Positions 10,925 through 63,894 of a DNA stretch of 64,000 bases are shown piece by piece. The stretch is taken from assembly GCA_030390025.1 (NCBI GenBank), contig CM059432.1:83950001-84014000 (forward strand), written 5' to 3'. The notes below the pieces were generated by a model that made no database searches, had not been told where the DNA came from, and saw nothing but the letters and a program-made list of their open reading frames with translations. The position numbers and the translations under genes are program-made. This stretch comes from Squalus acanthias (lineage: Eukaryota). The first letter of the stretch is position 1. Each line of letters begins with the position of its first letter.

Positions 10925-11780
10925 GGGCTAGAAATTTGTTTAGGCCTGTTTTCAGGTCCAAAATGGCCAGCGCGCACCAGAGGCTGGATGCCCAAGGCTC
11001 ATCCGAAATTGAACCTCAGCCCAATTGTGGTGAGCTGTGGATGCCAATCAGGCATCCAGAGGCAGCGAAGACAAAAGCATAATACTGCGGATGCTGGAAA
11101 TCTGAAATAAACACTGTTTCTCTCTCTACAGATGTTGTCTGATCTGCTGAGTATTTTCAGCATTTTCTGTTTTTATTTCAGATTTCCAGCATCCGCAGTA
11201 TTATGCTTTTGTCTTTGCTGCCTCTGGATGTTTTTAATCCAGAGGCAGCTCGCTGCTTTCCAGCTCATCAATTTGGGTCAGTTGCATCACCAGCCCTCAG
11301 GTAGGTCCTGGAGGTTGGGGGTGGGGGGAGGGGGGGCGCGAGGAGAACAAGAGGCAGGTGATGCAGGTAGTCAGCAGCCTGCAGTATCACTGTGGAGGCA
11401 AGAGGTGCTCTTGGCTCCACATTTAGATAAAATAAAATTGAAGAACTTAGCTTTTGTTGGCAGTCTTATTAAGAACTGCTGGTTAGGCCTCAGCAAGAGC
11501 ATGAAAAACTAATGGGAGCACGACAGGCACATACTCCACTCAGTGCTAACGAATATCTGAGAGGGCTCCTGAAATAGACGTTAGGCCCCTCCATTACTAT
11601 ATGCAGGGGCCGAACGCCTATTTTAGGCAGAAGCCAGGCAAACCTGAATATCACTCAAGCCAATATGGCATTGGACATATTTCAGGAGCCCTTTGGGCAG
11701 AGGACATAGCCCACAAAATTGGTTGTTATTGCCCCTCTGATATGCCTAAAAACCAGTGAAAAAGGTTCAATTTCACCCCC
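10925..11780. mobile_element. Non-autonomous Harbinger-type element
   Basis: Termini GGGCTAGAAATT / AATTTCACCCCC flanked by a 3-bp TAT duplication. Confidence 0.65.
11053..11249. mobile_element. Penelope-like terminal fragment with inverted arms, nested in 10925-11780
   Basis: 59-bp inverted arms with 1 mismatch; same family as 47791-47927 and 53758-53826. Confidence 0.65.
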
Positions 11781-16197: not shown

Positions 16198-17664
16198 TGG
16201 ACCTCAGATGAGAAGCAAGATGAGCACCAGCAGCACCAGGAGCAGCACCCGCAGCTCCACCAGCAACAATAGAAGGACAAGGGCAGCAAGCGCATGGGAA
16301 CACCACCACCTCTAAGTTCCCCTCCAAGTCACACACCATCCTGACTTAGAAATATATCGCTGTTCCTTCATCGTCGCTGGGTCAAAATCCTGGAACTCCC
16401 TCCCTAACAGCACTGTGGGAGTACCTTCACCACACGGACTGCAGCGGCTCAAGAAGGCGGCTCACCACCACCTTCTCAAGGGCAACTAGGGATGGGCAAT
16501 AAATAATGGCCTTGCCAGCGACGCCCATATCCCATAAACAAATAAAAAAAAAACAGCCAGCTGCTCACAGGCCTGCAGCTCCACAGAAAAGAGGGGATCA
16601 GCAGAGAGGTGCAGTTCGCAGAAGGCCATACCCGGTACACAAGGTCTACAGACAGAGGATGAGCTTCCTCGACATGTCGGAACACCAGTGTCTCAGGAGG
16701 CTCAGGGCATCACGTCAGGTGGTGACAACAGTTGCAGCCTTCGGGAACAAGACCTGCTGCCAACTGGATCTGGTTGCCACCAGTGGCTGTCAAAGTCACT
16801 ACCGGCTTCAACTTTTTTGCCTCTGGATCCTTCCAGGACTCATCTGGAGACATTTGCAGGATCTCGCAGTCAGCGGGACACAAATACATAAGACAGGTGA
16901 CTGATTGCTTCTTTGTCAGGCCCGGCAATTATGTCAACTTCGCCTGAGATGGCGCCAGTCAGAATGAACGGGCGCTCGGGTTTGCGGTTCTGGCTGGCTT
17001 CCCACAGATGCAAGGCATCATCGACTGCATGCATGTGGCAGTTAAGGCACCCATAGATCAACCAAGAGTGTTCGTGAACCGCAAGTGCTTCCACTCCATC
17101 AAAGTGCAGCTGGTGTGCAACCACAAAAAGATCTTTATGCAGGTGTGCGCAAGATTCCCAGGCAGCTGCCATGATGCTTTCGTCCTGCGGCAGTCCACCC
17201 TCCCAAACGTCTTCGCACCTGGAAGCAGAGTTACCAGCTGGCTGCTCGGACACAAGGGATACCCATTTAAAACGTGGCTGATGACACCTCTCGCAAACCT
17301 GAGGAATGAGGAGCGATATAATGAATGCCACATGACCACCAGATGTGTCATTGAATAAGCCATCGGCATGCTGAAGATATGCTTCAGGTACCTGGACAGA
17401 TCTGGAGGCGCCCTTCAGTTCACACCAGTCAGGGTTTCCTGAATGGTCGTGGTGTGCTGCGCTCTGCACAACATTGCGCAGCAGCAAGGTTTGGACCTGC
17501 AGGAGGAACAAGGCGCAGAGCACAGAGCCTCTTCAGAGGATTCTGAGGATGAGGAGGAAGACGAGGAGGAGGAGGAGGAGGAGGTGGAAGGTGATGTGGG
17601 CAATGCACCACCAGTGGCACACATTGCTGCCTGGGATGCCATCATTATTGCAAGGTTCACTTAG
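16198..17664 (+). pseudogene. Harbinger (HARBI1-like, DDE_Tnp_4) transposase pseudogene
   Basis: [39 protein letters not shown] (catalytic D>H), CCALHN; stops, frameshifts and a LINE insertion. Confidence 0.9.
16270..16553 (+). mobile_element. LINE 3' stub inserted in the Q-rich N-terminus of transposase A
   Basis: Matches ~4462-4729; poly-A tail. Confidence 0.85.
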
Positions 17665-17949: not shown

Positions 17950-20097
17950 CCATGTGCATACCCTTGTGCGACTACAAATCTTTACTCTTCCGTTTCCTAC
18001 CACTGATACAAGTGCAACCCCTGTGGCTTCAGCAGAGGCAGCAGTGTGCTCATATCCCTGCTCCGACAGCTGAAATGCTCTTGGCCAATGTCCTCTGTGT
18101 TTTGGAGCCCGTGAGGGCCCCGCCAAAGACTGCTCCACCTGCACCCGTACAGGGGCAGACTCACCCATCGGGACATGAGACAGCATGTGGCGTACTGACT
18201 GAGGGGGTGAGGCGGCAACGAGTGAGAAGCGGAAGAAGTGCTTTGAGCCGAGTCCCCACTTCCGTGTCCCCTTTCACCATCATCCCTCTCATGGCCCAGC
18301 CACATCCCCTGCTAGCAATGTGCTGGAGAACACTTTGCTGCAGATCAGTGGGGCGATGAACGGCCAAGGCTAGGGTATTATTTATCCTAATTAAAGTGGC
18401 ATTTATAGTGTGCAAGCAATTGGTGAGGGCCTGCATCCACTCGTGTGATTGCTGCATTTGATGCTCCATGCAGGTGGCCACTCTGTCCATAGTCGAAGAC
18501 ATCATCACAAAGGCCTGCAACATCATGCCACTCATACTCGAGATGGACTCCTCCAATCTCTCTGCAAGCGTGCACAGTGTAGCTGGAATGCCTGTCAGTA
18601 CATCGGGCATTCTCTGCTGCTGCTCCAGAAGTATCCTGTTCGTCGACGGCCCCCGAGGTACAGTATCTGTGCCCAGCTGAGCAAAGCTTGGAGCGTCCTG
18701 CGCCCTCTGATGCGGACTCTCCACTGCTGTCCCTGTCTGCACCATCTGCTCATGCTCACTTATGATGTGTGAGTCACCAGGTGAAAACAATCTGCCTTAC
18801 TGGTCCCACCGAAGTGTGAGTACCTGAGCTGCTACATGCTCTGCATGAGTCCTGTGACGGTGCACCCTCCGAGTGAGTGACCTCCTCTGGGAGTCAGCAG
18901 TGGCCAGCTGGACCACCTCCTCCTCTGAAGGCCCTGTAGGAGATAAAAGACATGAATGAGTACTGCCAATGTAAGAATGTTTGACGTAATCATTTTGCAC
19001 ATGATCATATTTCACTCGCTGTTGACATCAAGTTGCATGGCATGTCTGATATTTAATTCTGTCACCAGACGGCTGGGAGGCCCCCATCTACGATGGCCAG
19101 GCATGCTGAGACTCCATCAATTTCCAGTGCCTCCTTCTCTGCACTTGTTAGCTGTGAGATGGCTGGAATGCCACCTCCGGTTCTCTGCCTCTCCCTTGCG
19201 TTCTGTGCTCTCTTCTCCTGTAAGAAGGGAAAGAGGAGACCTGTGAGTGATAGTTATGTATGTGTTGAACGTAACTTTTTTAAAAATTTATTCACGGGAT
19301 GTAGATATGCTTGAGCTTTCATTGCCCATCCCAAATTGCCCTTCTTGAATACAACTGAATGGCTTGCTGGGCCATTTCAGATGGCAGTTAAGAGTCAACC
19401 ACATTGCTGTAGGTTTTGAGTTACACATAGGCCAGACCAGGTAAGGATGGCAGCTTTCCTTCCCTAAAGCACATTAGTGAATCCAGATGGGTTTTATACA
19501 ATTACTAAAACTAACTTTTTATTCCAAATTAATTGAATTTAAATTCCCCAGCTGCTATGGTGGGATTTGAACTCCTATTTCCAGATTATTAATGCAGGCC
19601 TCTGGATTACTAGTCCCGTAACATAACCACTATGCTACCGTTGCCCCATGAGGGAGAAAAGTGACATTGCATAAGGATGAGGGTGAGTGTCAGCGGTGGA
19701 TGGACAGATGGGGATGTGAGGAAGTGCATAGACAGAGAGGGATGGGTGCACCTGCAAGGTGAGTTGGTGTGAGGAGTGAAGTGCTGGAGTAGGCTTGAGA
19801 AGGCAGAGTGAGGGGAATTGGGGTGATATGCACATCAGTATATAGGTGACTGTACCATTGCTCTGACCTTACCTGCCTGCTTGGGTCATTGAACCACTGT
19901 ATCCATGAGCATTGCACCATGCTCCTGCTGCTGACCTCTTGTGCCACCTCCAACCATGCCTTCTTGGTGTCCCTAGCCGGTTTCATCCTCCCGTCGCTAG
20001 GGAAGAGTATATCCCTCCAGGTCCTCACAGCCCCCAGCAGCACATCCAGGGAGGCATCACTGAACTGAGGCGCAGCCTTTGACCTTCTGGACTCCAT
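17950..20097 (-). pseudogene. Spliced Myb/SANT-like DNA-binding partner gene of Harbinger A (exons ~20097-19873, 19217-19066, 18933-17950)
   Basis: APQFSDASLDVLL..W.EVA.EV..WIQ..FND; exon 2 EKRAQNARERQRTGGG; GT-AG boundaries. Confidence 0.8.
19277..19648 (-). mobile_element. tRNA-derived SINE with a 3' tail like the 2253/3781 LINE
   Basis: Head GGTAGCATAGTGGTTA..GAGTTCAAATCCC (A/B boxes); tail AAGGGCAATTTGGGATGGGCAAT. Confidence 0.7.
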
Positions 20098-20510
20098 TCT
20101 AGCACTCCCTTCTCTTTGACTCCAAACTGCAAACTCCTTCAAATTGCATGATTGGAGTGTCCCTTTAAATTCTGGGGTTGAAATCGCCTCATGCGGGTCG
20201 TCATCATGCCCGCTGACGCTAATTTGTTGGGAAATCTGGAAATCATATGGTAATGCAGTGGCTGGGTTAAAAAGCCATTGACAGATGCGGTGCACTGACT
20301 TCTGGGGTTCTGGTGCGACACCGGACAGCCCCACTCCCAGCGCGTCACAAACTTAAAATCCAGGCAACAATAACGTGCCCCTGTGAGCACCGCATTGGAG
20401 AACAGAATCAACCTTATAGTTAGAAGTGAAAATCCTATTCCACTAATCTATGTACCATTAAATTCAGTGTATAGACTATACCTGTGTAAAATGCAGCTAT
20501 ATTTGTAAAT

Positions 20511-26284: not shown

Positions 26285-28466
26285 GGGGGCCAACTGCTGT
26301 TAACGTCCGCCCGAAATGGCCGCAGCGCTAACCGACCTAAACTGATGTGGGGGGCATGGAGGTAGGTGGCGCAGCGCTAACCTTAGGTGCAACGCCTTGT
26401 GGCTTTGATGCTTCCCCTAGTGTCTGTGTGCGAGACTGTGAAGCTCGCAATGCATTGTGGGCATGAGGAGCTCTGAAATTTAAAGGGGCCATGCACATTG
26501 AAGCAAGACAAAATAAAGTGCACTGATTCAATACATTTTTCAGCCATTTCTGTCTTTTTACAAATATTCAATATTTAAAAGAAGTTCCAAATATGATTAT
26601 TCATCTCTTAAAGCTGAATTACCTTCCTAAACTGAACAAATGGAAAAACTGTCTCAGCACTAACACAAATGGCTCAGCAAGCCAGGGAAGCGGCACCCAG
26701 AGTCTCGCACGCAGCACCCAAGCTTTGTGCAGGGGGTCAACACTAAGACTGGCCCTCTACCCACAGAAGCCAGGAGGCCCTCCAGAAAGAACAATGTGGG
26801 AGTACATTACCAAGGCCGTCACTGCCAGCAGTGTTGCCCCCACCACCTGGCTCCAGTGCCCACAGAAGCTTCATGACCTCAGACCACTGGTCAAGGTCAG
26901 TGAATGCATCTTCAAAAGCCGTCACCTACCAACTGCACCACTAGCCTCACATAATGCTCAATGTATGACCCCCAATCACTCACCTACCAACAATCTGCGC
27001 CAATGACGAGGCACATCCACCATTCCTAGCATCACCTCACTTCCTTGGAGGAGACGGTGCAGGCCATTCTTGGCAGGAGCATGGTTGAGCCCTTGGCCAG
27101 CGGCGGGGCTGAAAGGATACAAGATGCGGGTATCCTCGTACGTTATCCCCCTTCTGGCATGCACCTCTATGCTTCCCGCCCTCCCATCAGCACAACTCCA
27201 CCCTTGTGTTTTCCTCATTTTACACACCCAAGAAATGCAGTTTGCCCAGCCAATGGGACCGCAGGCGAATGATTCCATCCCGGATATCCTAGCCACAAAG
27301 GGGCTGACTGGGATGCATCCTTCCGTCTGATTCCTCCTCTTCTGCGTCTTGCTCTTCTGCGTCTTGCTCTTCTGCGTCTTGCTCTTCTGCGTCTTGCTCA
27401 CCTGCGTCTTGCTCACCTGCGTCTTGCTCACCTGCGTCTTGCTCACCTGCGTCTTGCTCTTCTGCGTCTTGCTCACCTGCGTCTTGCTCACCTGCGTCTT
27501 GCTCTTCTGCATCTTGCTCTTCTGCGTCTTGCTCACCTGCGTCTTGTTCACCTGCATCTTGCTCTTCTGCGTCTTGCTCTTCTGCGTCTTGCTCTTCTGC
27601 GTCTTGCTCTTCTGCGTCTTGCTCACCTGCGTCTTGCTCACCTGCGTCTTGCTCACCTGCGTCTTGCTCTTCTGCGTCTTGCTCACCTGCGTCTTGCTCA
27701 CCTGCGTCTTGCTCTTCTGCGTCTTGCTCTTCTGCGTCTTGCTCACCTGCGTCTTGTTCACCTGCATCTTGCTCTTCTGCGTCTTGCTCTTCTGCGTCTT
27801 GCTCTTCTGCGTCTTGCTCTTCTGCATCTTGCTCACCTGCGTCTTGCTCTTCTGCATCTTGTTCACCTGCGTCTTGCTCGACCTGCGTCTTGCTCACCTG
27901 CGTCTTGCTCTTCTGCGTCTTGCTCTTCTGCGTCTTCCTCTTCCCTCTGCAAGTGGATGCTGTAAATGTGAAATGACAGCATAAGATGCTGCAAATACTC
28001 AGCATGTTGACCTGAGATGTGAACTCCACGGATGTAGCGTGACCTGCTGAGTATTCGCAGCATGTTCTGTCTTCTCAAAGGCATTCACTTACCATCCGAG
28101 CCCTTGCAAGCGTCCAGCAGCACTCCCAAAACACTTAAACTTTTCACATATATTGCAGCAAGCCACCACTTCAATAAAATCCAAAAAACCAAGGCCAAAC
28201 CCTTCCATTCAAACTTACCTGATTGATGTGTGTGTCCCTTTAACAGCTGCAGATATCGCCACTGTCAGCATCTGTCAGCCTGCTTGCACGCCTGGCGTGA
28301 TTAAGACCCAGCGGTCGAAGTTCGCATAGGTGATGTTAAATCTGCATTGCACGAATATGGTGGCCGCCGCGGGGACCGCCTCCAGCTGGCACAAGAGCGG
28401 CAGCCGCCATTTTTTTGAGAATCGCTGGCGCTAACAGGTGCCGGTAAGTATATGAATTTCTCGCCC
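26285..28466. mobile_element. Internally deleted Harbinger C (Myb/SANT remnant on +; left end uncertain)
   Basis: W.YITKAV.ASS.AP.TW.QC..K.HDL; 27045-27140 matches exon 2 of the element B partner gene; right terminus AATTTCTCGCCC. Confidence 0.7.
27343..27943. repeat. 15-bp minisatellite, ~40 units, TGCGTCTTGCTC(TTC/ACC)
   Basis: Directly visible tandem array with one 16-bp unit near 27880. Confidence 0.98.
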
Positions 28467-30937: not shown

Positions 30938-31015
30938 CTGATCCTGAGAAATTGTCTAAAGAGCCGTCTGCTGTCGTTGTGGCAATATCGCTGCTGCTCA
31001 TTGGTTCTGTTTTGA
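30938..31015 (-). CDS. EYA1: EYA1 exon: (V)[25 protein letters not shown]
   Basis: ttttcag|TCAAAA...TCAG|gtaaga; 78 nt, phase 1-1; matches EYA1 [26 protein letters not shown]. Not visible in the ORF track. Confidence 0.96.
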
Positions 31016-39241: not shown

Positions 39242-40485
39242 TACTATTTTCTTAAACAGGAATAAAGAAAATTGAATCACAGCATATCACCTAAAATGGA
39301 AAGCTGGATGGAACCAAAAATATGTTGCATTACCAATACAGCTGAAGCCAGTTAAGACTGTCAAAGACGTGCCTTTTCTCAGACACCAATTGATCTCTAA
39401 TACAATGGCTTTACCAGGTTTATAGAAAAGGGAGTGGAAACTCTTTCTTTTCAAATGGCAATAGGCAAGCCATACGACAGATACTGAGCTGTCATCAGTG
39501 AGTTATGTTTTCCTACCTTCCTTTTCTGACATAGCCGCAAGTTTATGACCCACTCTCTGGCAATGCAAACTTTTACTACGAGTACTTTGTTAATTTTTTT
39601 TACATTTGTCAATCTTAATGGAAAACAATAATAGGCACTGTAAACCATCTCATTCCAAATGGAAGTAGCAAGCAGCATTTTTTTAAATGAAAATATTGTG
39701 CAGATTTTAATCAAATTGTGTACTGCAACAAAGCTGTGTAAATGCATGTGAATCATATTGGTGGTTTTTATTTAATAAGAATAATCTTATAAACAGAACA
39801 ATTACACCTCGTCTCTATTGGAATTGTTCTTTTGACAATAAAACACCAAAATAAACTGGTGACATAAAGGTAGTTAACACAGATCAAAAGTGCTTCAGAT
39901 GCATTCCTGCAAGTCACGTCATGCTTTCTTTATTATTAGTCTGCTGACCTGAAGCACATAAAAGGCCCTGATAATAATTTGTAAATAGCATTGTGAATAA
40001 CTTATTCCTAATTGGAACTTCTGAAAGCAGTTGTTTTAGCCATAGGCTGGGTTTGACTGCTACACAAAAACTAAAATGTACTTAAATAAAATGTAAAAGC
40101 ATAACTCTTAGTTTTGTAAATGTATTATTAATCTGCATAATCTTTTGACTTTGGCTGCATTACTGGAGCACAAAACAGAACCAATTGTCACAAATCCTAA
40201 CAGAGTTCAATAATGTTATTTTACAAAGGTATAATATAACTCTAGCATACATGCGTAAACAAAGGCATACAGCATAAACATCTTCATAGTGCACATAGTC
40301 AACGTAATTTCTTGGCAAAAAATTATAATTTTACATCACTTTTCACAAAAATAAAAATAATGCGAGCCTACATAAATATAAAGCAGAATGCAGCCAGCCT
40401 AAAACCACACCTAAAGGGCACTTCAGAGGACATACCACACAACATAAATCAAATTTTGTGATTTTTGTACCAGAGCCACACAAAC

Positions 40486-40551
40486 CTGCAGTGGTCTGTG
40501 TACTAGAACCTAGCAACCAGTCTGCTGTGCTGAGCATAGTCATGTTGTCAC
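40486..40551 (-). CDS. EYA1: EYA1 66-nt symmetric cassette exon: (G)DNMTMLSTADWLLGSSTQTTA
   Basis: tccctttag|GTGAC...GCAG|gtttgt, phase 1-1, no stop; resembles EYA4 [22 protein letters not shown] at the equivalent position. Confidence 0.88.
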
Positions 40552-40611
40552 CTAAAGGGAAATTGTAAACAAGAAGTTTAAACAATGAACTGACGTCAGG
40601 AGTAAAAAAAA

Positions 40612-41027
40612 ATTGGTGGGCAGGAGATATGTGCTATAGGATAGGACAGCTTGCCACGATAATGTTTCCTGTCTTGAGGTGAATTCTTTGAAGCCATGAA
40701 CCCAGATGAGAAATAGCAAACATGCTTTGTAGCTAAATAGAAATATCAAATCAAAGCTAGGATTCAAAATCAAGACTCTGTAACTGAGACTTCAGTGTTT
40801 TACCACTGAAGTAATCAGGTCTTCTTTAAATCAATACTAGAGAGTTTTATCCACAAAATAAAATTAGATTCACAAGGGAAAAAGTGCAAAAGAAGATGGT
40901 TGTAAATGTAACATTTATTAGAGGGAGCTCTCTCTGTTTCAGAAGTATAGTCTTGCGATTCCCTCATGTACAAGAGAATTATGAAGCATCAGATGAACAG
41001 TTCTATAGCTCATGAGGGAGTTCAAGG
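40612..41027. repeat. Left arm of ~415-bp inverted repeat
   Basis: Reverse complement aligns colinearly with 46048-46459. Confidence 0.93.
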
Positions 41028-41032
41028 ACTAA

Positions 41033-42597
41033 GGCCGCGAATTTAATGGAGGATGGTGGTGGGAGAGCTGGTTTCCGGGTTCCGGTCCCGCTCCAAGCTG
41101 CAGCCGCTCTGTAGACGTGATTTTCCCTTGATTGGGCTTGTTAAGCCCACCCTGCGGGCTTCCCGGCCAATTAACAGGAAGCGGGTCTGATGACGTCATT
41201 TAATGACGCGTCATCAGCCGGTTTCCTTAAAGGGACCACGTCCACTTGGAGTTTGACAGTTGTGCTGTCAGTGTTTGACAGCATTGAGGTGCTGCAAACA
41301 CTGACAAGCACTGCACAAAGGTGAACGCTTGCACCCAGGCTCTCCAATAACTCCCTCCATATGCTTATGGAGGGAGTCACAGCACCCTTCCAAGGGTGGA
41401 AGAGACCTTCCCAGGACACCAACGCAGCCTGGTTGCACATTGCACAGGAAGGCAAAAGCAGGGATGTCCTCAGGGGTCCCTGGCTGCAGTGGCACCAACC
41501 TTACAATGATCTCAGTAGATCATGAAACGTTACTGCAATGCCACACTCAAACTCACCCAGCTGTGCCACTCAGCACATCCCCATCACTCTGCCTTCCATA
41601 CCCTTCTCCTGCACATCCTTACTCACACCAACTTACCTTGCAACTCCACCTAACTCTCTCTATGTACTTTATCACTTCCCCATCTCACTAGCCACCCCTC
41701 ACACTCGCCCTCATCCTACTGCAAGCATAACAACTAATAACACACAAGGGTAGGCACTTGAGAGGTTTAGCCAATGTCCATGTGAAGTTTCTGGAAATGT
41801 GTTGTCATACAGTGAAATCTGTTTTTCCAAAAGTGCTCCTTATTGAACAGATCCTGAGTGCACCTTGAGAAGTGTCTTACTGAGTTCCAGTGATTGTTCA
41901 GACATAATTTTCCCCGCCAACCCCCCCCCCAACCCCCCACCTCGCCCGCCTCCCCCCCCCCCCCCCCGCCCCGCTATAGTGATGTGTGTGCATGGAATGG
42001 CTTGGACATTAAAGGGATGCTCCTCGGTGCTGGTATGGGATGGTGTCAACCTGGCGCATCATGTGGCAGCCAGGGTTTACAGCGTCAAGTGAAGAAAATC
42101 TGGCCATGGTGATGCCATCGCTGGCCTCCTGGGCAGCAATGTTGTCAGGGGCTGATGCCCTGTGTCCTGTGCAGCATCAGGTGATGGCGGAGAAGGTTGG
42201 TGATGTTGTCAGTGATGTTGGTGTGCCTGGTGTTGGGGCTGAACATGGAAGGATTCAGAGGACCAAGGTCTGATTTTTTCAAGGGCACCGATGTTGCTGC
42301 AATAGATGGCAGCTGCAGGTGAGATGACAGAAGCAATCTGTCAATGGTGAGAGAGGTTCTCCCAATGAGGTGGCACTGGACATACAGTTGGATCTAAAAG
42401 CTTGTAAGCTAAAGAAATCTCTATATGTATTAAAAATGCAGTAGCCAACATTTTCTGCGCTCTGAAGCTCACCATCTGCAACATGGCATCCTTGACACCA
42501 CTTCTGCAGCTGTTAGCTTTTCAGAAACATCACAGCAGACTCAAAACATGCCAGGTTGAGCTGGCATGTTCCCCGAACAGCGGGTAACCCATGGGGG
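41033..42597. mobile_element. Deleted Harbinger D, right end lost
   Basis: TAA|GGCCGCGAATTT start; Myb/SANT remnant APRLS..L.ML..AWLHIAQE..W.QW..NDL on +. Confidence 0.65.
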
Positions 42598-45500
42598 AGA
42601 ACATTATGATTAGGCAGAGTTAACATGGTTTTATGAAAGGGAAATCATGTTTAACAAATTTATTAGAGTTTTTCGAGGACGTAACTTGCAGGGTAGATTA
42701 AAGAGGAACCAGTGGATGTAATATATTTGAATTTCCAAAAGGCATTCAATAAGGTGCCACATAAAAAGTTGCTATGCAAGATAAGGGCTCATGGGGTTGG
42801 GGTAATATATTAGCATAGATAGAGGATTGGTTAACGGACAGAAAACAGAGAGTAGGGATAAATGGGTCACTTTCCAGTTGGCAGGCTGTAACTAGTGGGG
42901 TGCCGCAAGGATCATTGCTTGGGCCTCAGCTATTTACAATCTATATTAATGACTTAGATGAAGGGACTGAGTGCAATGTATCCAAGTTTGTTGACGATAC
43001 AAAACTAGGTGGGAAAGTAAGCTGTGAGGAGGACACAAAGAGCCTGCAAAGGGATATAGACAGGCTAAGTGAGTGGGCAATAAGGTGGCAGATGGAGTAT
43101 AATGTGGGGAATTGTGAGGTTATTCACTTTGGTAGGAAGAATAGAAAAACAGAGTATTTTTTAAGTGGTGAATTCTTCAAGGGAGAACCAGACCAAATAC
43201 AATAAGTTTCGAGGGGAAGTGAAGTTGAAAATAAGATTGGCAAAGAGAGAATATGAGAGTAGAATGGCGGTTAACATAAAAGGGAACCCAAAAATCTTCT
43301 ACCGGCATGTAAACAGTAAGCGGGTAGTAAGAGGCAGGGTGGGGCCTATTAGGGACAAAGAAGGTGATATATGCTTAGAGGCACAGGGCAAGGCTAGAAT
43401 ACTCAATGAGTACTTTGTATCGGTGTTTACTAAGGAGATGGATGCTGACAAAATATCAGTAGAAGTGGAAAAGGTAGAAGCAATGGAAGGGGTGAAAATT
43501 GATAGACAGGATGTACTAGAAAGGCTGGGTATGCTTAGAGTGGATAAGTCGCCTGGTCCAGATGGCTTGCATCCCAGGTTGCTAAGGGAATTGGGGGAGG
43601 AGATAGCGGAAGGGCTTGCCATTATTTTCCAATCTTCCCTAGATGTGGGGGAGGTGCCTGAGGATTGGAAAGTGGCAAATGTGACACCATTGTTCAAGAA
43701 AGGGTGTAAGGACCATCCTAGTAACTACAGGCCGGTCAGTTTAACATCAGTGGTAGGTAAAGTTTTAGAAACAATAATCAAGGAAAAAAGTAACGGGCAC
43801 TTGGAGAAGTTTAAGCTAATTAAGGAGAGCCAACACGGATTTGTAAAAGACAGATCATGTTTGACTATTCTAATTGAATTTTTTGATGAAGTAACAGGGA
43901 GGATTGATGAAGGAAATGCAATGGATGTTGTCTACATGGATTTTCGGAAGGCGTTTGACAAAGTACCACATAGAAGGCTGGTTAACAAAATTGAGGCTCA
44001 CGGAATAGGTGGGTCAGTGGCAGCTTGGATATGGAATTGGCTTAAGGACAGAAAACAATGAGTTGTGGTAAATGGCTGTTTTTCAGACTGGAGGATGGTA
44101 GACAGTCGTGTTCCCCAAGGGTCAGTGCTGGGGCCACTGCTTTTTTTGATATATATAAATGACCTGGATATTGGAATACAGAGTAGAATTTCTAAATTTG
44201 CTGATGACACCAAACTTGGGGGTGCGGCAAACAGTGAGGATGATACCAATCGACGGCAACAGGACATAGAAAGGCTAGCAGAATGGGCAGACAAGTTACA
44301 GATGGAATTTAACACAGAGAAGTCTGAGGTGATGCATTTTGGCAGAAGGAACAGGGAGAGGCAATATACACTTAATGGCACAGTTTTAAAGACTGTGCAG
44401 GGACAGAGGGACCTGGGAGTTAATGCGCATAGGTCCCTGAAGGTGGCGGGACATATTGAGAGAGTGGTTAGCAAAGCATATGGGATCTTGGGCTTCATAA
44501 ATAGAGGTATTGAGTACAAAAGTAGAGAAGTTATGCTGAACCTTTATACAGTGCTGGTTAGGCCACAATTGGAGTATTGCGTCCAGTTCTAGTCACCACA
44601 CTTTAGGAAGGATGTGAAGTCACTTGAGAGGGTGCAGAGGAGATTTACCAGAATGGTTCTGGGGATGGGGGATCTTAGCTACAAGGACAGCTTGGAGAAG
44701 CTGGATTTGTTTTCATTAGAGCAAAGGAGGTTGCTGGGTGATTTGATAGAGCTGTACAAGATTATGACAGGTTTGGATAGGCTAGACGGGGAAAGGCTGT
44801 TCCCACTAGTTCATGGTACAAGGACTACGGGACACAGATTTAAGGTTTTGGGCAAGAGATACAGGGGGGATGTGAGGAAAAACTTTTTAATGCAGCGAGT
44901 GGTGAGGACCTGGAACTCGCTGCCGACGGAAGTGGTGGAAGCGGACACACTCAATGTTTTCAAGGGGAGACTGGATAGGCACTTGAGGGAAATAAACTTG
45001 CAGGGCTACGGGGATAGAACGGGGGAGAGGGACTGACTGGATTGCTCTACAGAGAGCCGGCATGGACTCGATGGGCCGAATGGCCTCCTTCTGTGCCGTT
45101 ATAACTCTATGACTCTATGGTGAGAAACTATTAAATGTTGGTGTTCAGAGAGATTTAGGTATCCTCAAACAGGAAACACAGAAAGTTAGCATGCAGGTAC
45201 GGCAAGCAATTAGGAAGGCAAATTGCATGTTGGCCTTTATTGCAAGAGGGTTGGAGTACAAGAGTAAGGAAGTCTTACTACAATTGAGACCACACCTGGG
45301 GTACTGTGCACAGTTTTGGTCTCCTTATCTGAGGAAGGACATACTTGTCTTAGAGGCGGTGCAACGAAGGTTCACTAGATTGATCCCTGGGATGAGAGGG
45401 TTGTCCTATGAGGAGAGATTGAGTAGATTGTGTCTATACTCTCTGGAGTTTAGAAGAATGAGAGGTGATCTCATTGAAACATATAAGATTCTGAGGGGGT

Positions 45501-45853
45501 TTGACAGGATAGATGCTGATAGATTGATTCTCCCAGCTGGCGAGTCCAGAACTAGGGGGCATAGTCTCAGGATAAGGGGTCTGCCATTAAGACTGAGATG
45601 AGGAGGAATTTCTTCACTCAGAGGGTTGTGAATCTTTGGAATTCTCCACTCCAAAGGGCTGTGGATGCTGAGTCATTGAGCATATTCAAGGCTGAGATAG
45701 ATAGATTTTTGGACTCTAGGTCAATCAAGGGATATGGAGATCGGGCGAGAAAGTGGAGTTGAGGTCAAAGATCAGCCATGATATTATTGAATGGCAGAGC
45801 AGGCTCGAAGGGCCATATGGCCTTCTCCTGCTCCTAATTCTTATGTTCTTATG
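42598..45853 (+). mobile_element. Outer CR1 (42598-43171 and 45118-45853)
   Basis: QHGFMKGKSCLTNL-like, GVPQGSLLGP; resumes at GEKLLNV..QRDLG after the inner element. Confidence 0.9.
43172..45117 (+). mobile_element. Inner, younger CR1 with near-intact RT domain
   Basis: ORFs 43165, 44065 and 44614 share one frame with two internal stops; FADD motif; TGGTGA duplicated at both ends. Confidence 0.93.
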
Positions 45854-46047
45854 AGATACAGGTTTGTAATAGCTAAGAACCACGTACAACATGCTCAAAC
45901 AGAACAGGTAACCTTCTATTAAAGTGGCATCACATTTTGTTACTTGACAGACACTCATTAACTTAACTCAGGGCTAAATTAAATGAGGTGCACTACAAAA
46001 AATAAAAACTTTATAATGTTTGTTACAATGAAGAAACTATTATGAGA

Positions 46048-46459
46048 GCTTAAACTCCCTCATGAGCTATTGAACTGTTCAGCTAATGCTTCATAATTCT
46101 ATTGTACATGAGGGAATCTCAAGATTACACTTCTGAAACAGAGAGAGCTCCCTCTAACAAATGTTACAGTTACAGCCATCAATTTTTTTTTACTGTGAAT
46201 CTAATTTTATTTCCTGGATAAACCTCTCCAGTATTGATTTAATGGACACCTGGTAACTTCAGTGGTAAAACACTGAATTCTCATTTACAGGGCCACAATT
46301 TTGAATCCTAGCCTTGATTGATATTTCTATTCAGCTGCAAAGCCGAGTTTGCTGTTTCTCATCTGGGTTCATAGCTTCAAAGGATACCATCTCAGGACAT
46401 GAAAAATTAGCAGGAGCAATCTATCTTATCCTATAACACACATCTCCTGCCTACCAATA
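46048..46459. repeat. Right arm of ~415-bp inverted repeat
   Basis: For example CTTCTGAAACAGAGAGAGCTCCCTCTAA is the reverse complement of TTAGAGGGAGCTCTCTCTGTTTCAGAAG at ~40918-40945. Confidence 0.93.
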
Positions 46460-46931
46460 TACAGTGACACCAACAACAGGTATAAAAAAGTTTGCAACCT
46501 TGACCCTGCAACCTTTCTTGCTGAAAGAGGGTGGTATTGAGACAGAAAATAAAATGAAAAATGATAAAATGGGGAGTTTATGAATTTGTTAAACTGAGTT
46601 TCTTGTATTTTGTTGAAGAAGAGCGAATTAAAACAGCAACCTTTTAACTCTGAAGAACTTTAGTTCAAGAAATGAAATAATCCAAGAAAGGTATATGGAA
46701 GGAGTGATCTGAATTGGCCTAATGGCCTTTTCTCATTCTATGCTTTATATATTCTCATGGAGGTGTAAGAATATTTTCTCAATGTTGTTCATCAGTAATA
46801 CAATGTTTTAAACTGAGCAAAGTTTACAGAGCTTTCCACTTGGTTCATGTCATAAAATCAAGTACAACTTACATTCAATGCAATATCCATTATATATTAA
46901 AAATTATGTTGTATAATCTTATATATGCAAT

Positions 46932-49798: not shown

Positions 49799-49926
49799 CT
49801 TCTGTGCCATTTGGTGTCATGGAATTATTATTGATACAGGAGTTGTCAAGTTTTGGACCATTGGGAGATTCACTGCTTCCACTTACTCGACTGTGTGGAC
49901 TTGCTAGATCCTGCATTTCCATAGAC
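49799..49926 (-). CDS. EYA1: EYA1 exon with canonical start ATG at 49922: [41 protein letters not shown]
   Basis: Close match to the EYA1 N-terminus; ttgtttgtag|GTCTATG...GAAG|gtgagt; 128 nt, ends in phase 1. Confidence 0.97.
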
Positions 49927-62911: not shown

Positions 62912-63880
62912 TGGGCCAGTATTTTCTGTCAAAATAGCGATAAGGTTAATGGCGCTCATCATTATTTATGGATAAATGGTAGTACTGCAACTTCAGGCAA
63001 GGAGAAAATGTGTGGCTAAATATGAATATCCGAAAGTTGCTGTCCAAGTTGCACCGCTTTGACGTTAGCTTCACAAAAACGACATTTCGCCCTTAGCCTG
63101 CCTTTTGTTTTAGTGAGTTGCCATATTTGTCAAAATTAATTGCCCATTAAACTCGCCACAGAAAGTTAAGTCTTGTCACTGCAAGCATAAGTACCCTTTT
63201 AACAACGTGATAAGTGTTAATGACTCCCCAGTCAACCTCTCTGGCACCGAAAATTAACTATTACAAGTGTGGAGTCACATTCCTTCAGGTTTTGAATATT
63301 TTGGGGAGATTTAAAAAAATGTCAAATTTTAAATTTAACATTTTCTTTCTTACTTTTCCTTTCTGCCTCTTTTGTCTCCCGCTTTCTTAATCCAATCTTT
63401 CTTACCCTCTCTTTGGCCGGAATTTTTCGGGGCGTCAGCGAGGGCGTTTGTAGGCGGGTCAGCTGGGAAAATGTTTTTTTGACAGCGGGTAGGGAACCCA
63501 CTGTCAACCCGCCTCCACGCTAGTCTCCCAGATGTCGGGTCTGTCATTGCAGAACAGACCCGACACCAAGCGGCGGGGGAGGCAATTGACATCATTAGAT
63601 ACATTGTTAACAGCCAATTAAGTAATATTTTATGCCTATTTTTCAATTTTACGTGTTCTCCAATGGCTTCCCCGCTGCTCGGGGATCACGTCAGGTAAGG
63701 AGGTCAGGTGTTGTGTCAGCATGGGATGATTTCTTTATTTGGCAGCTGCAAATGGTCTATAAAAGCTCCCATTTCATAGGTCTTCAATTTGCAAGGTTAG
63801 AAGTTGTTACTGCATTTGGAAGACATATTGAGCTTTATGCAGCTTGCAAGTGGTTGGAGCTAACTCACTATCCAGTGTCA
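62912..63880. mobile_element. Probable non-autonomous DNA-transposon remnants (second start near 63415)
   Basis: GGGCCAGTATTTT and GGCCGGAATTTTT starts; CpG-richer than the flanks. Confidence 0.4.
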
Positions 63881-63894
63881 CTGGATATATATAT

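Follow-up and report, generated by a model that had tools for sequence, protein, structure and literature searches.

RESULTS

EYA1 and its 66-nt exon

EYA1, which acts in the development of the ear, kidney, and placodes, lies on the minus strand of the DNA analyzed here (the window; the whole stretch of 64,000 nt). In tblastn comparisons with two shark proteins, its exons were located at approximately 49.9, 40.5, 31.0, 14.7, 14.3, and 13.9 kb, and the best named protein matches were those of sharks and a chimaera, which makes a shark the likely source. The exons that frame the region described below are as follows.

49799..49926, minus strand: upstream EYA1 exon, placed by tblastn with shark EYA1 proteins
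40486..40551, minus strand: EYA1 alternative exon, 66 nt, presumably weak donor CAG/GTTTGT
30938..31015, minus strand: downstream EYA1 exon, 78 nt

The translation of the 66-nt exon (40551-40486) is identical to residues 42 to 63 of two shark EYA1 proteins. Its donor, which we take to be weak judging from the splice consensus, is CAG/GTTTGT, versus GTGAGT and GTAAGA at the neighboring EYA1 exons. The exon is both present and skipped among the annotated isoforms of Cetorhinus (present in 1 of 7), Pristiophorus (1 of 6), and Callorhinchus (2 of 8), and likewise in those of Pygocentrus, Colossoma, and Salminus; it is present in all three Heterodontus entries and in no entry from rays or carpet sharks. 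This tally, which covers 87 of 120 proteins, is one of database gene models clustered at 90% and not of inclusion levels. The exon is thus old and is annotated as alternative well beyond the clade, from a chimaera to teleosts, and its skipping is likely explained by the weak donor together with this ancient alternative status.

An inverted pair upstream of the exon

The 9.2-kb intron upstream of this exon (49798-40552) contains both arms of a long inverted pair.

40612..41026, no strand assigned: left arm, exon-proximal and 3' in the transcript; defined by alignment and covered by one contig per run in organisms A, B, D, and F
46049..46458, no strand assigned: right arm, 5' in the transcript; defined by alignment and covered by a second contig in four of four runs

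The original prediction of two colinear reverse complements at 40612-41027 and 46048-46459, roughly 80 to 85% identical, was confirmed by local alignment, except that the right arm begins at 46049 instead of 46048. The alignment of 40612-41026 with the reverse complement of 46049-46458 comprises 419 columns, of which 356 are identical, 50 are mismatches (28 transitions and 22 transversions), and 13 are gap columns, which corresponds to an identity of 85.0% over all columns and 87.7% without gaps (K2P distance, 0.135; Jukes-Cantor [JC] distance, 13.5%). Its score is 512, whereas none of 180 random inverted comparisons between 800-nt pieces exceeded 35. The arms are 5,022 nt apart. The innermost 69 columns are 93% identical, a gradient that is not significant between the inner and outer halves (p = 0.41), and divergence is highest over the 74 nt nearest the exon (15 mismatches, approximately 80% identity). 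As the original prediction held, 60 nt separate the near arm from the acceptor of the 66-nt exon, and a CTGAC motif lies close by at 40599-40595, outside the arm. As native sequence, the left arm probably extends as far as the TAA at 41031-41033.

The outer flanks of the arms are unrelated, as judged by outward extensions of 40, 80, 150, and 300 nt (shuffle p, 0.11 to 0.73), and the extension into the branch region gave no significant match. By eye, no target-site duplication was seen at the outer ends of the arms, although age could erase one. An nhmmer profile of both arms found no third copy in the 64-kb window; the sole further match was a weak one of the inner ~65 nt to itself. This inner portion of each arm (40958-41026 and 46049-46117) is itself a small imperfect inverted repeat, and a short hairpin is present at 40793-40812 within the left arm.

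Sequence between the arms

The interval between the arms is occupied by the following elements.

41034..42603 (end approximate), no strand assigned: Harbinger-like DNA transposon fragment, which follows the TAA in the old left arm and lacks its far end
42604..45853, plus strand: outer CR1-like LINE fragment, including the nested inner one below; RVT_1 within this span in frames 42819-43202, 43165-44058, and 44062-44589
~43172-45120: inner CR1-like fragment, nested in the outer one, with GGTGA at both junctions
45854..46048, no strand assigned: 195-nt spacer, of which at least the first ~30 nt next to the arm are read as orphaned inner right arm

The Harbinger-like fragment shows 38% amino-acid identity to 19744-20091, which itself lies near a DDE_Tnp_4 frame (16948-17355; Pfam), and we presume its family from this relative together with the TAA target expected of Harbinger elements. 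It also matches a copy at 63654-63881, and the match stops at ~42603, which indicates that the far end is missing. Of 10 frames compared with Pfam, 5 gave a match; no family was assigned to the Harbinger-like frame 41305-41688 or to its relative 19693-20352. The family label CR1 for the two LINE fragments in 42604-45853 is likewise our assumption.

The transposon stack thus agrees with the expectation of a Harbinger element, two nested CR1s, and ~190 bp of other sequence between the arms, whereas the 195 nt proved to be partly arm. Behind 41034, the left-arm contig of organism F continues with 30 letters of which 24 agree with the reverse complement of 46018-46047 (by eye; binomial p ~9e-8), and the second contig of F runs into sequence matching the window spacer at 28 of 30 positions (by eye). 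Judged by these matches, at least the first ~30 nt of the spacer is the continuation of the right arm, the left partner of which was lost in the window and survives in F.

Elsewhere in the window, a 15-nt tandem array with long open frames (~27200-27950; 34 overlapping 270-nt copies) lies inside a probable transposon, and a short inverted repeat at 11053-11230, with 62-nt arms that are 97% complementary and 54 nt apart, overlaps a dispersed repeat also found at 28004, 47823, and 53756.

The arms in contigs of related species

Four of 22 contig runs were compared: X1 of organism A (the species of the window and possibly its source), X6 of B, X9 of D, and X14 of F. Contigs were placed on 39601-41100 at 80% likeness, so the comparison would overlook copies with less than approximately 80 to 82% identity; this detection limit shows in the true partner arm itself, whose outer 74 nt (80% identity) were not matched. 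The contig figures rest on the best 40 of 225 differences, 12 of 42 indels, 24 of 144 loose ends, and 29 of 1,851 pieces.

In each of A, B, D, and F, one contig joins the left arm to the exon and the downstream intron; it differs from the window at 46/1,472 positions in B, 32/1,090 in D, and 83/~1,200 in F. The second contigs of A, B, and D are similar in length (1,731, 1,715, and 1,724 nt) and in offset, with the arm starting 219 to 222 letters in. The depth over the arm is that of the two listed contigs summed, i.e., 11.8 + 15.2 = 27.0 in A, 17.9 + 17.4 = 35.3 in B, 10.4 + 13.9 = 24.3 in D, and 8.59 + 9.46 = 18.1 in F, with flank depths of 11.8, 17.9, 10.4, and 8.59, respectively; in D, a single bin lies ~1 depth unit above this sum. 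Depth is not copy number, and the argument is the number of contigs covering the arm: at 80% likeness or more, no dispersed copies were found beyond two contigs per run in all four runs. On the other hand, the first 67 nt of the Harbinger-like element reach 725 to 3,964 times the flank depth in A, B, and D (zero in F) and attract most of the 500 to 730 records in each of these three. Two contigs per run on the arm versus hundreds on the Harbinger-like element indicate that the arm does not represent a recent high-copy repeat. This candidate, against which a check of copy number had been proposed, was rejected at that likeness. The proposed check in relatives likewise came out in favor of the pair, since contigs of three related species match both arms, so that all four species compared carry them. 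We infer the linkage of the arms in the relatives, as no contig spans both and the comparison covers the left side.

Three further features of these contigs were noted. An extra G behind 40680 in four of four runs, including that of the window's own species, and a difference of X1 from the window at 39678 are likely allele or assembly differences. In all four runs, coverage rises at 40501-40550 because a similar exon from another place also matches there (9 differences in 51 in the X14 contig), and the diverged exon-like sequence over 40501-40557 is likely the matching exon of an EYA paralog. The low count of differences around the exon (3/312 versus 26/699 in plain intron) is not taken as evidence, because positions under this paralog overlay are hidden.

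These contigs bear on two other explanations of the pair. An assembly artefact, in the form of a fold-back chimera, is hardly credible and is refuted by the 15% divergence of the arms and by the finding, in four species, that the two arms lie on separate contigs with distinct flanks. The arms could also be long terminal inverted repeats of an extinct fold-back or nonautonomous DNA transposon. Alternatively, they could stem from a very old dispersed repeat, such as a tRNA-derived SINE, present here as two copies in opposite orientation. The sharp outer boundaries and unrelated flanks are consistent with such origins, as are an A/B-box-like stretch at 46255-46312 and the small internal palindromes, and other copies that had drifted below the 80% limit of the search would escape it. 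Nevertheless, copies that are 85 to 88% alike should have similar siblings, none of which appeared in the four runs, and the outer ends show no target-site duplication by eye. The A/B-box-like motif occurs in both arms and folds as simple hairpins and not as a cloverleaf; ARAGORN found no tRNA, Rfam gave no match in the whole window at the gathering score, and the five weak Rfam matches at E <= 10 on 40400-46700 lie outside the arms. Of the old tRNA-SINE-like head suggested for the arms, only the box-like resemblance therefore stands, and we consider a transposon or dispersed-repeat origin unlikely.

Origin and order of events

The pair probably goes back to one old event in which unique intron DNA was duplicated locally in inverted orientation; it likely decayed neutrally thereafter and was later split by transposons. 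The original prediction had argued for a local inverted duplication instead of two SINE insertions, and the two contigs per run, the lack of a third copy in the window, and the presence of both arms in three relatives agree with it. The arm-arm distance of 13.5% (JC) is approximately 1.9 times the A-F distance of 7.3%, which places the duplication before the split of F. The left-arm contig of F, the most distant of the relatives, is without Harbinger-like sequence and continues for 646 letters behind 41034; its continuation into spacer-matching sequence indicates that the repeat was once longer than 415 nt. The inverted duplication predates the transposon stack. The arms as ends of that stack were considered and rejected, the stack being younger than the arms.

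The following order of events would account for these observations. The inverted duplication would have arisen before the split of F, probably by a template switch in replication or by break repair, and the F lineage would then have separated. After this split, a Harbinger-like element was likely inserted at the TAA inside the left arm, and a deletion likely removed the old spacer together with the inner left arm and the far end of the transposon.

Decay of the arms

A search for G-U-biased changes between the arms had been proposed as a sign of selected pairing. No such bias was found: on the transcript strand, 16 mismatches form G-U and 12 form A-C (p = 0.29, with low power). The left arm of A differs from the right arms of A, B, and F at 38/334, 39/334, and 46/333 positions, respectively (p = 0.35 for the extremes). 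It is thus about equally far from all three, as expected for independent drift, with no marked homogenization. The differences between A and B in the left arm are bracketed at 7 to 17 of ~399, versus 26/699 in plain intron (p, 0.07 to 0.75; best 40 of 225 differences), and the per-run totals suggest the upper part of this bracket. Damage in one arm is not mirrored in the other, as illustrated by a 16-nt deletion in the left arm of B, a 79-nt stretch replaced by 65 nt in the right arm of D, and three small deletions in the right arm of A and B; the substitutions at 40755, 40784, and 40956 in the left arm of A break matches kept in the other species. Counted against the neutral reading are the lower bound of 7/399, which is about half the intron rate, and the persistence of both arms in four species with an identity of still 85%. 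With their low power, these pairing tests reveal no selection but do not demonstrate that it is lacking.

Three sites hint at conversion or compensation between the arms, possibly as short gene conversions: in B, the two arms show an identical letter change at 40750, and the left arm of D carries the right-arm letters at 40730 and 40900. Together with the higher inner identity of the arms, they fit a neutral duplication without an RNA role, the divergence of which was slowed by occasional arm conversion at the DNA level, so that it would be older than 13.5% suggests. We regard this explanation as very unlikely: the within-species arm distance is not clearly below those between species (the 38/334, 39/334, and 46/333 above), A and B share their arm-specific indels by orthologous descent, and parallel transitions can explain two of the three sites.

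Potential RNA duplexes

The duplex of the arms is predicted at -543 kcal/mol, with a longest unbroken helix of 43 bp. Five further inverted pairs of at least 300 nt, all derived from repeats, lie between the EYA1 exons at 13.8 and 49.9 kb, and the three that were folded gave -646, -833, and -997 kcal/mol; long potential duplexes are thus routine in EYA1 pre-mRNA, and the arms may pair in it at times, like many inverted transposon pairs in the gene.

One CR1-like inverted pair, 35501-36070/45285-45853 (570 nt, 85%, -833 kcal/mol), brackets the 66-nt exon in a loop-out or back-splicing geometry and crosses the 415-nt arm pair. Two head-to-head inverted LINE copies with RVT_1 (2253-3167/3781-4728) are ~89 to 94% alike and ~613 nt apart, and their duplex, predicted at -1,679 kcal/mol, would be a much stronger candidate for double-stranded RNA and editing if it lies inside the next EYA1 intron.

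A regulatory role of the arm duplex has a described precedent. Lev-Maor et al. (PMC2533698) showed with a minigene that two inverted Alus in the intron upstream of human RABL5 exon 3, the nearer at 24 nt from it, pair with each other and undergo editing, and that they render the exon alternative. By analogy, the arm duplex 60 nt before the acceptor would modulate inclusion of the 66-nt exon and be edited by ADAR. The geometry is indeed similar, with both elements in the upstream intron: the arms lie in one pre-mRNA near an alternative exon and are predicted to pair, with the folding energy and helix length given above, and both are kept in four species, with one both-arm change in B. However, the 5,022 nt between them contrast with Alu pairs "within 2000 nucleotides" as ADAR substrates and a mean of 682 nt for edited Alus, as quoted in PMC2533698, where inter-Alu spacing is also described as mattering less than the distance to the exon. 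In addition, the mismatches show no G-U bias (16 versus 12, p = 0.29), the exon-proximal end is the most eroded part of the arm with CTGAC outside the helix, the inner left arm was lost in A, B, and D, deletions are unmirrored, arm divergence is compatible with the rate of the flanking intron, and the annotation of the exon as alternative extends across jawed vertebrates. The long double-stranded RNA that the original prediction had put forward as affecting exon inclusion or attracting ADAR editing has no positive support, and a duplex of the RABL5 type is, in our judgment, improbable here. Similarly doubtful is its fuller form, in which an inverted duplication of nontransposon origin became fixed ahead of the separation of several shark lineages and was recruited as a long-range duplex that stops short of the branch region and tunes an ancient EYA1 exon, with arm conversion slowing its decay. 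If it were true, the Harbinger insertion and the arm truncation in three of the four species would provide a natural experiment in which duplex length and loop size vary, and a duplex that tunes the exon would be a cartilaginous-fish counterpart of splicing control by inverted Alus, built from unique DNA.

DISCUSSION

The inverted pair neatly records, within a shark intron, an order of events that runs from duplication over transposon insertion to deletion. As it stands, the arm pair matters little, since long introns commonly contain small inverted duplications as well as inverted transposon pairs. A literature search by title and beginning of abstract, with subscription papers and supplements outside its scope, returned nothing on the arm repeat or the 66-nt exon.

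Small local inverted duplications arise by template switching or break repair. The arm pair resembles them in being two-copy, at the same locus, in opposite orientation, and with unrelated outer flanks, whereas the breakpoint signatures are gone here, given the 13.5% divergence and the deleted inner junction. Fold-back and long-TIR nonautonomous DNA transposons consist of long inverted termini around a noncoding interior. The EYA1 pair shares both of these features and, unlike such elements, has no dispersed copies at 80% likeness or more and no target-site duplication visible by eye.

Among inverted repeats with an effect on splicing, loop-out exon skipping is caused by inverted Alus that flank an exon, as reported in PMC13019027. 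The EYA1 arms are like these in being intronic inverted repeats with predicted long stems near a skippable exon; the loop-out Alus lie on both sides of the exon, whereas the arm pair lies on one side. At RABL5 (PMC2533698), as here, both inverted elements are upstream of an alternative exon and the nearer one is tens of nucleotides from the acceptor. On the other hand, the RABL5 elements are high-copy SINEs close together, with pairing and a splicing shift shown, whereas the EYA1 arms are two-copy DNA, 5 kb apart, and known from sequence alone; and RABL5 exon 3 is described there as constitutive in outgroups, while the EYA1 exon is annotated as alternative in its outgroups.
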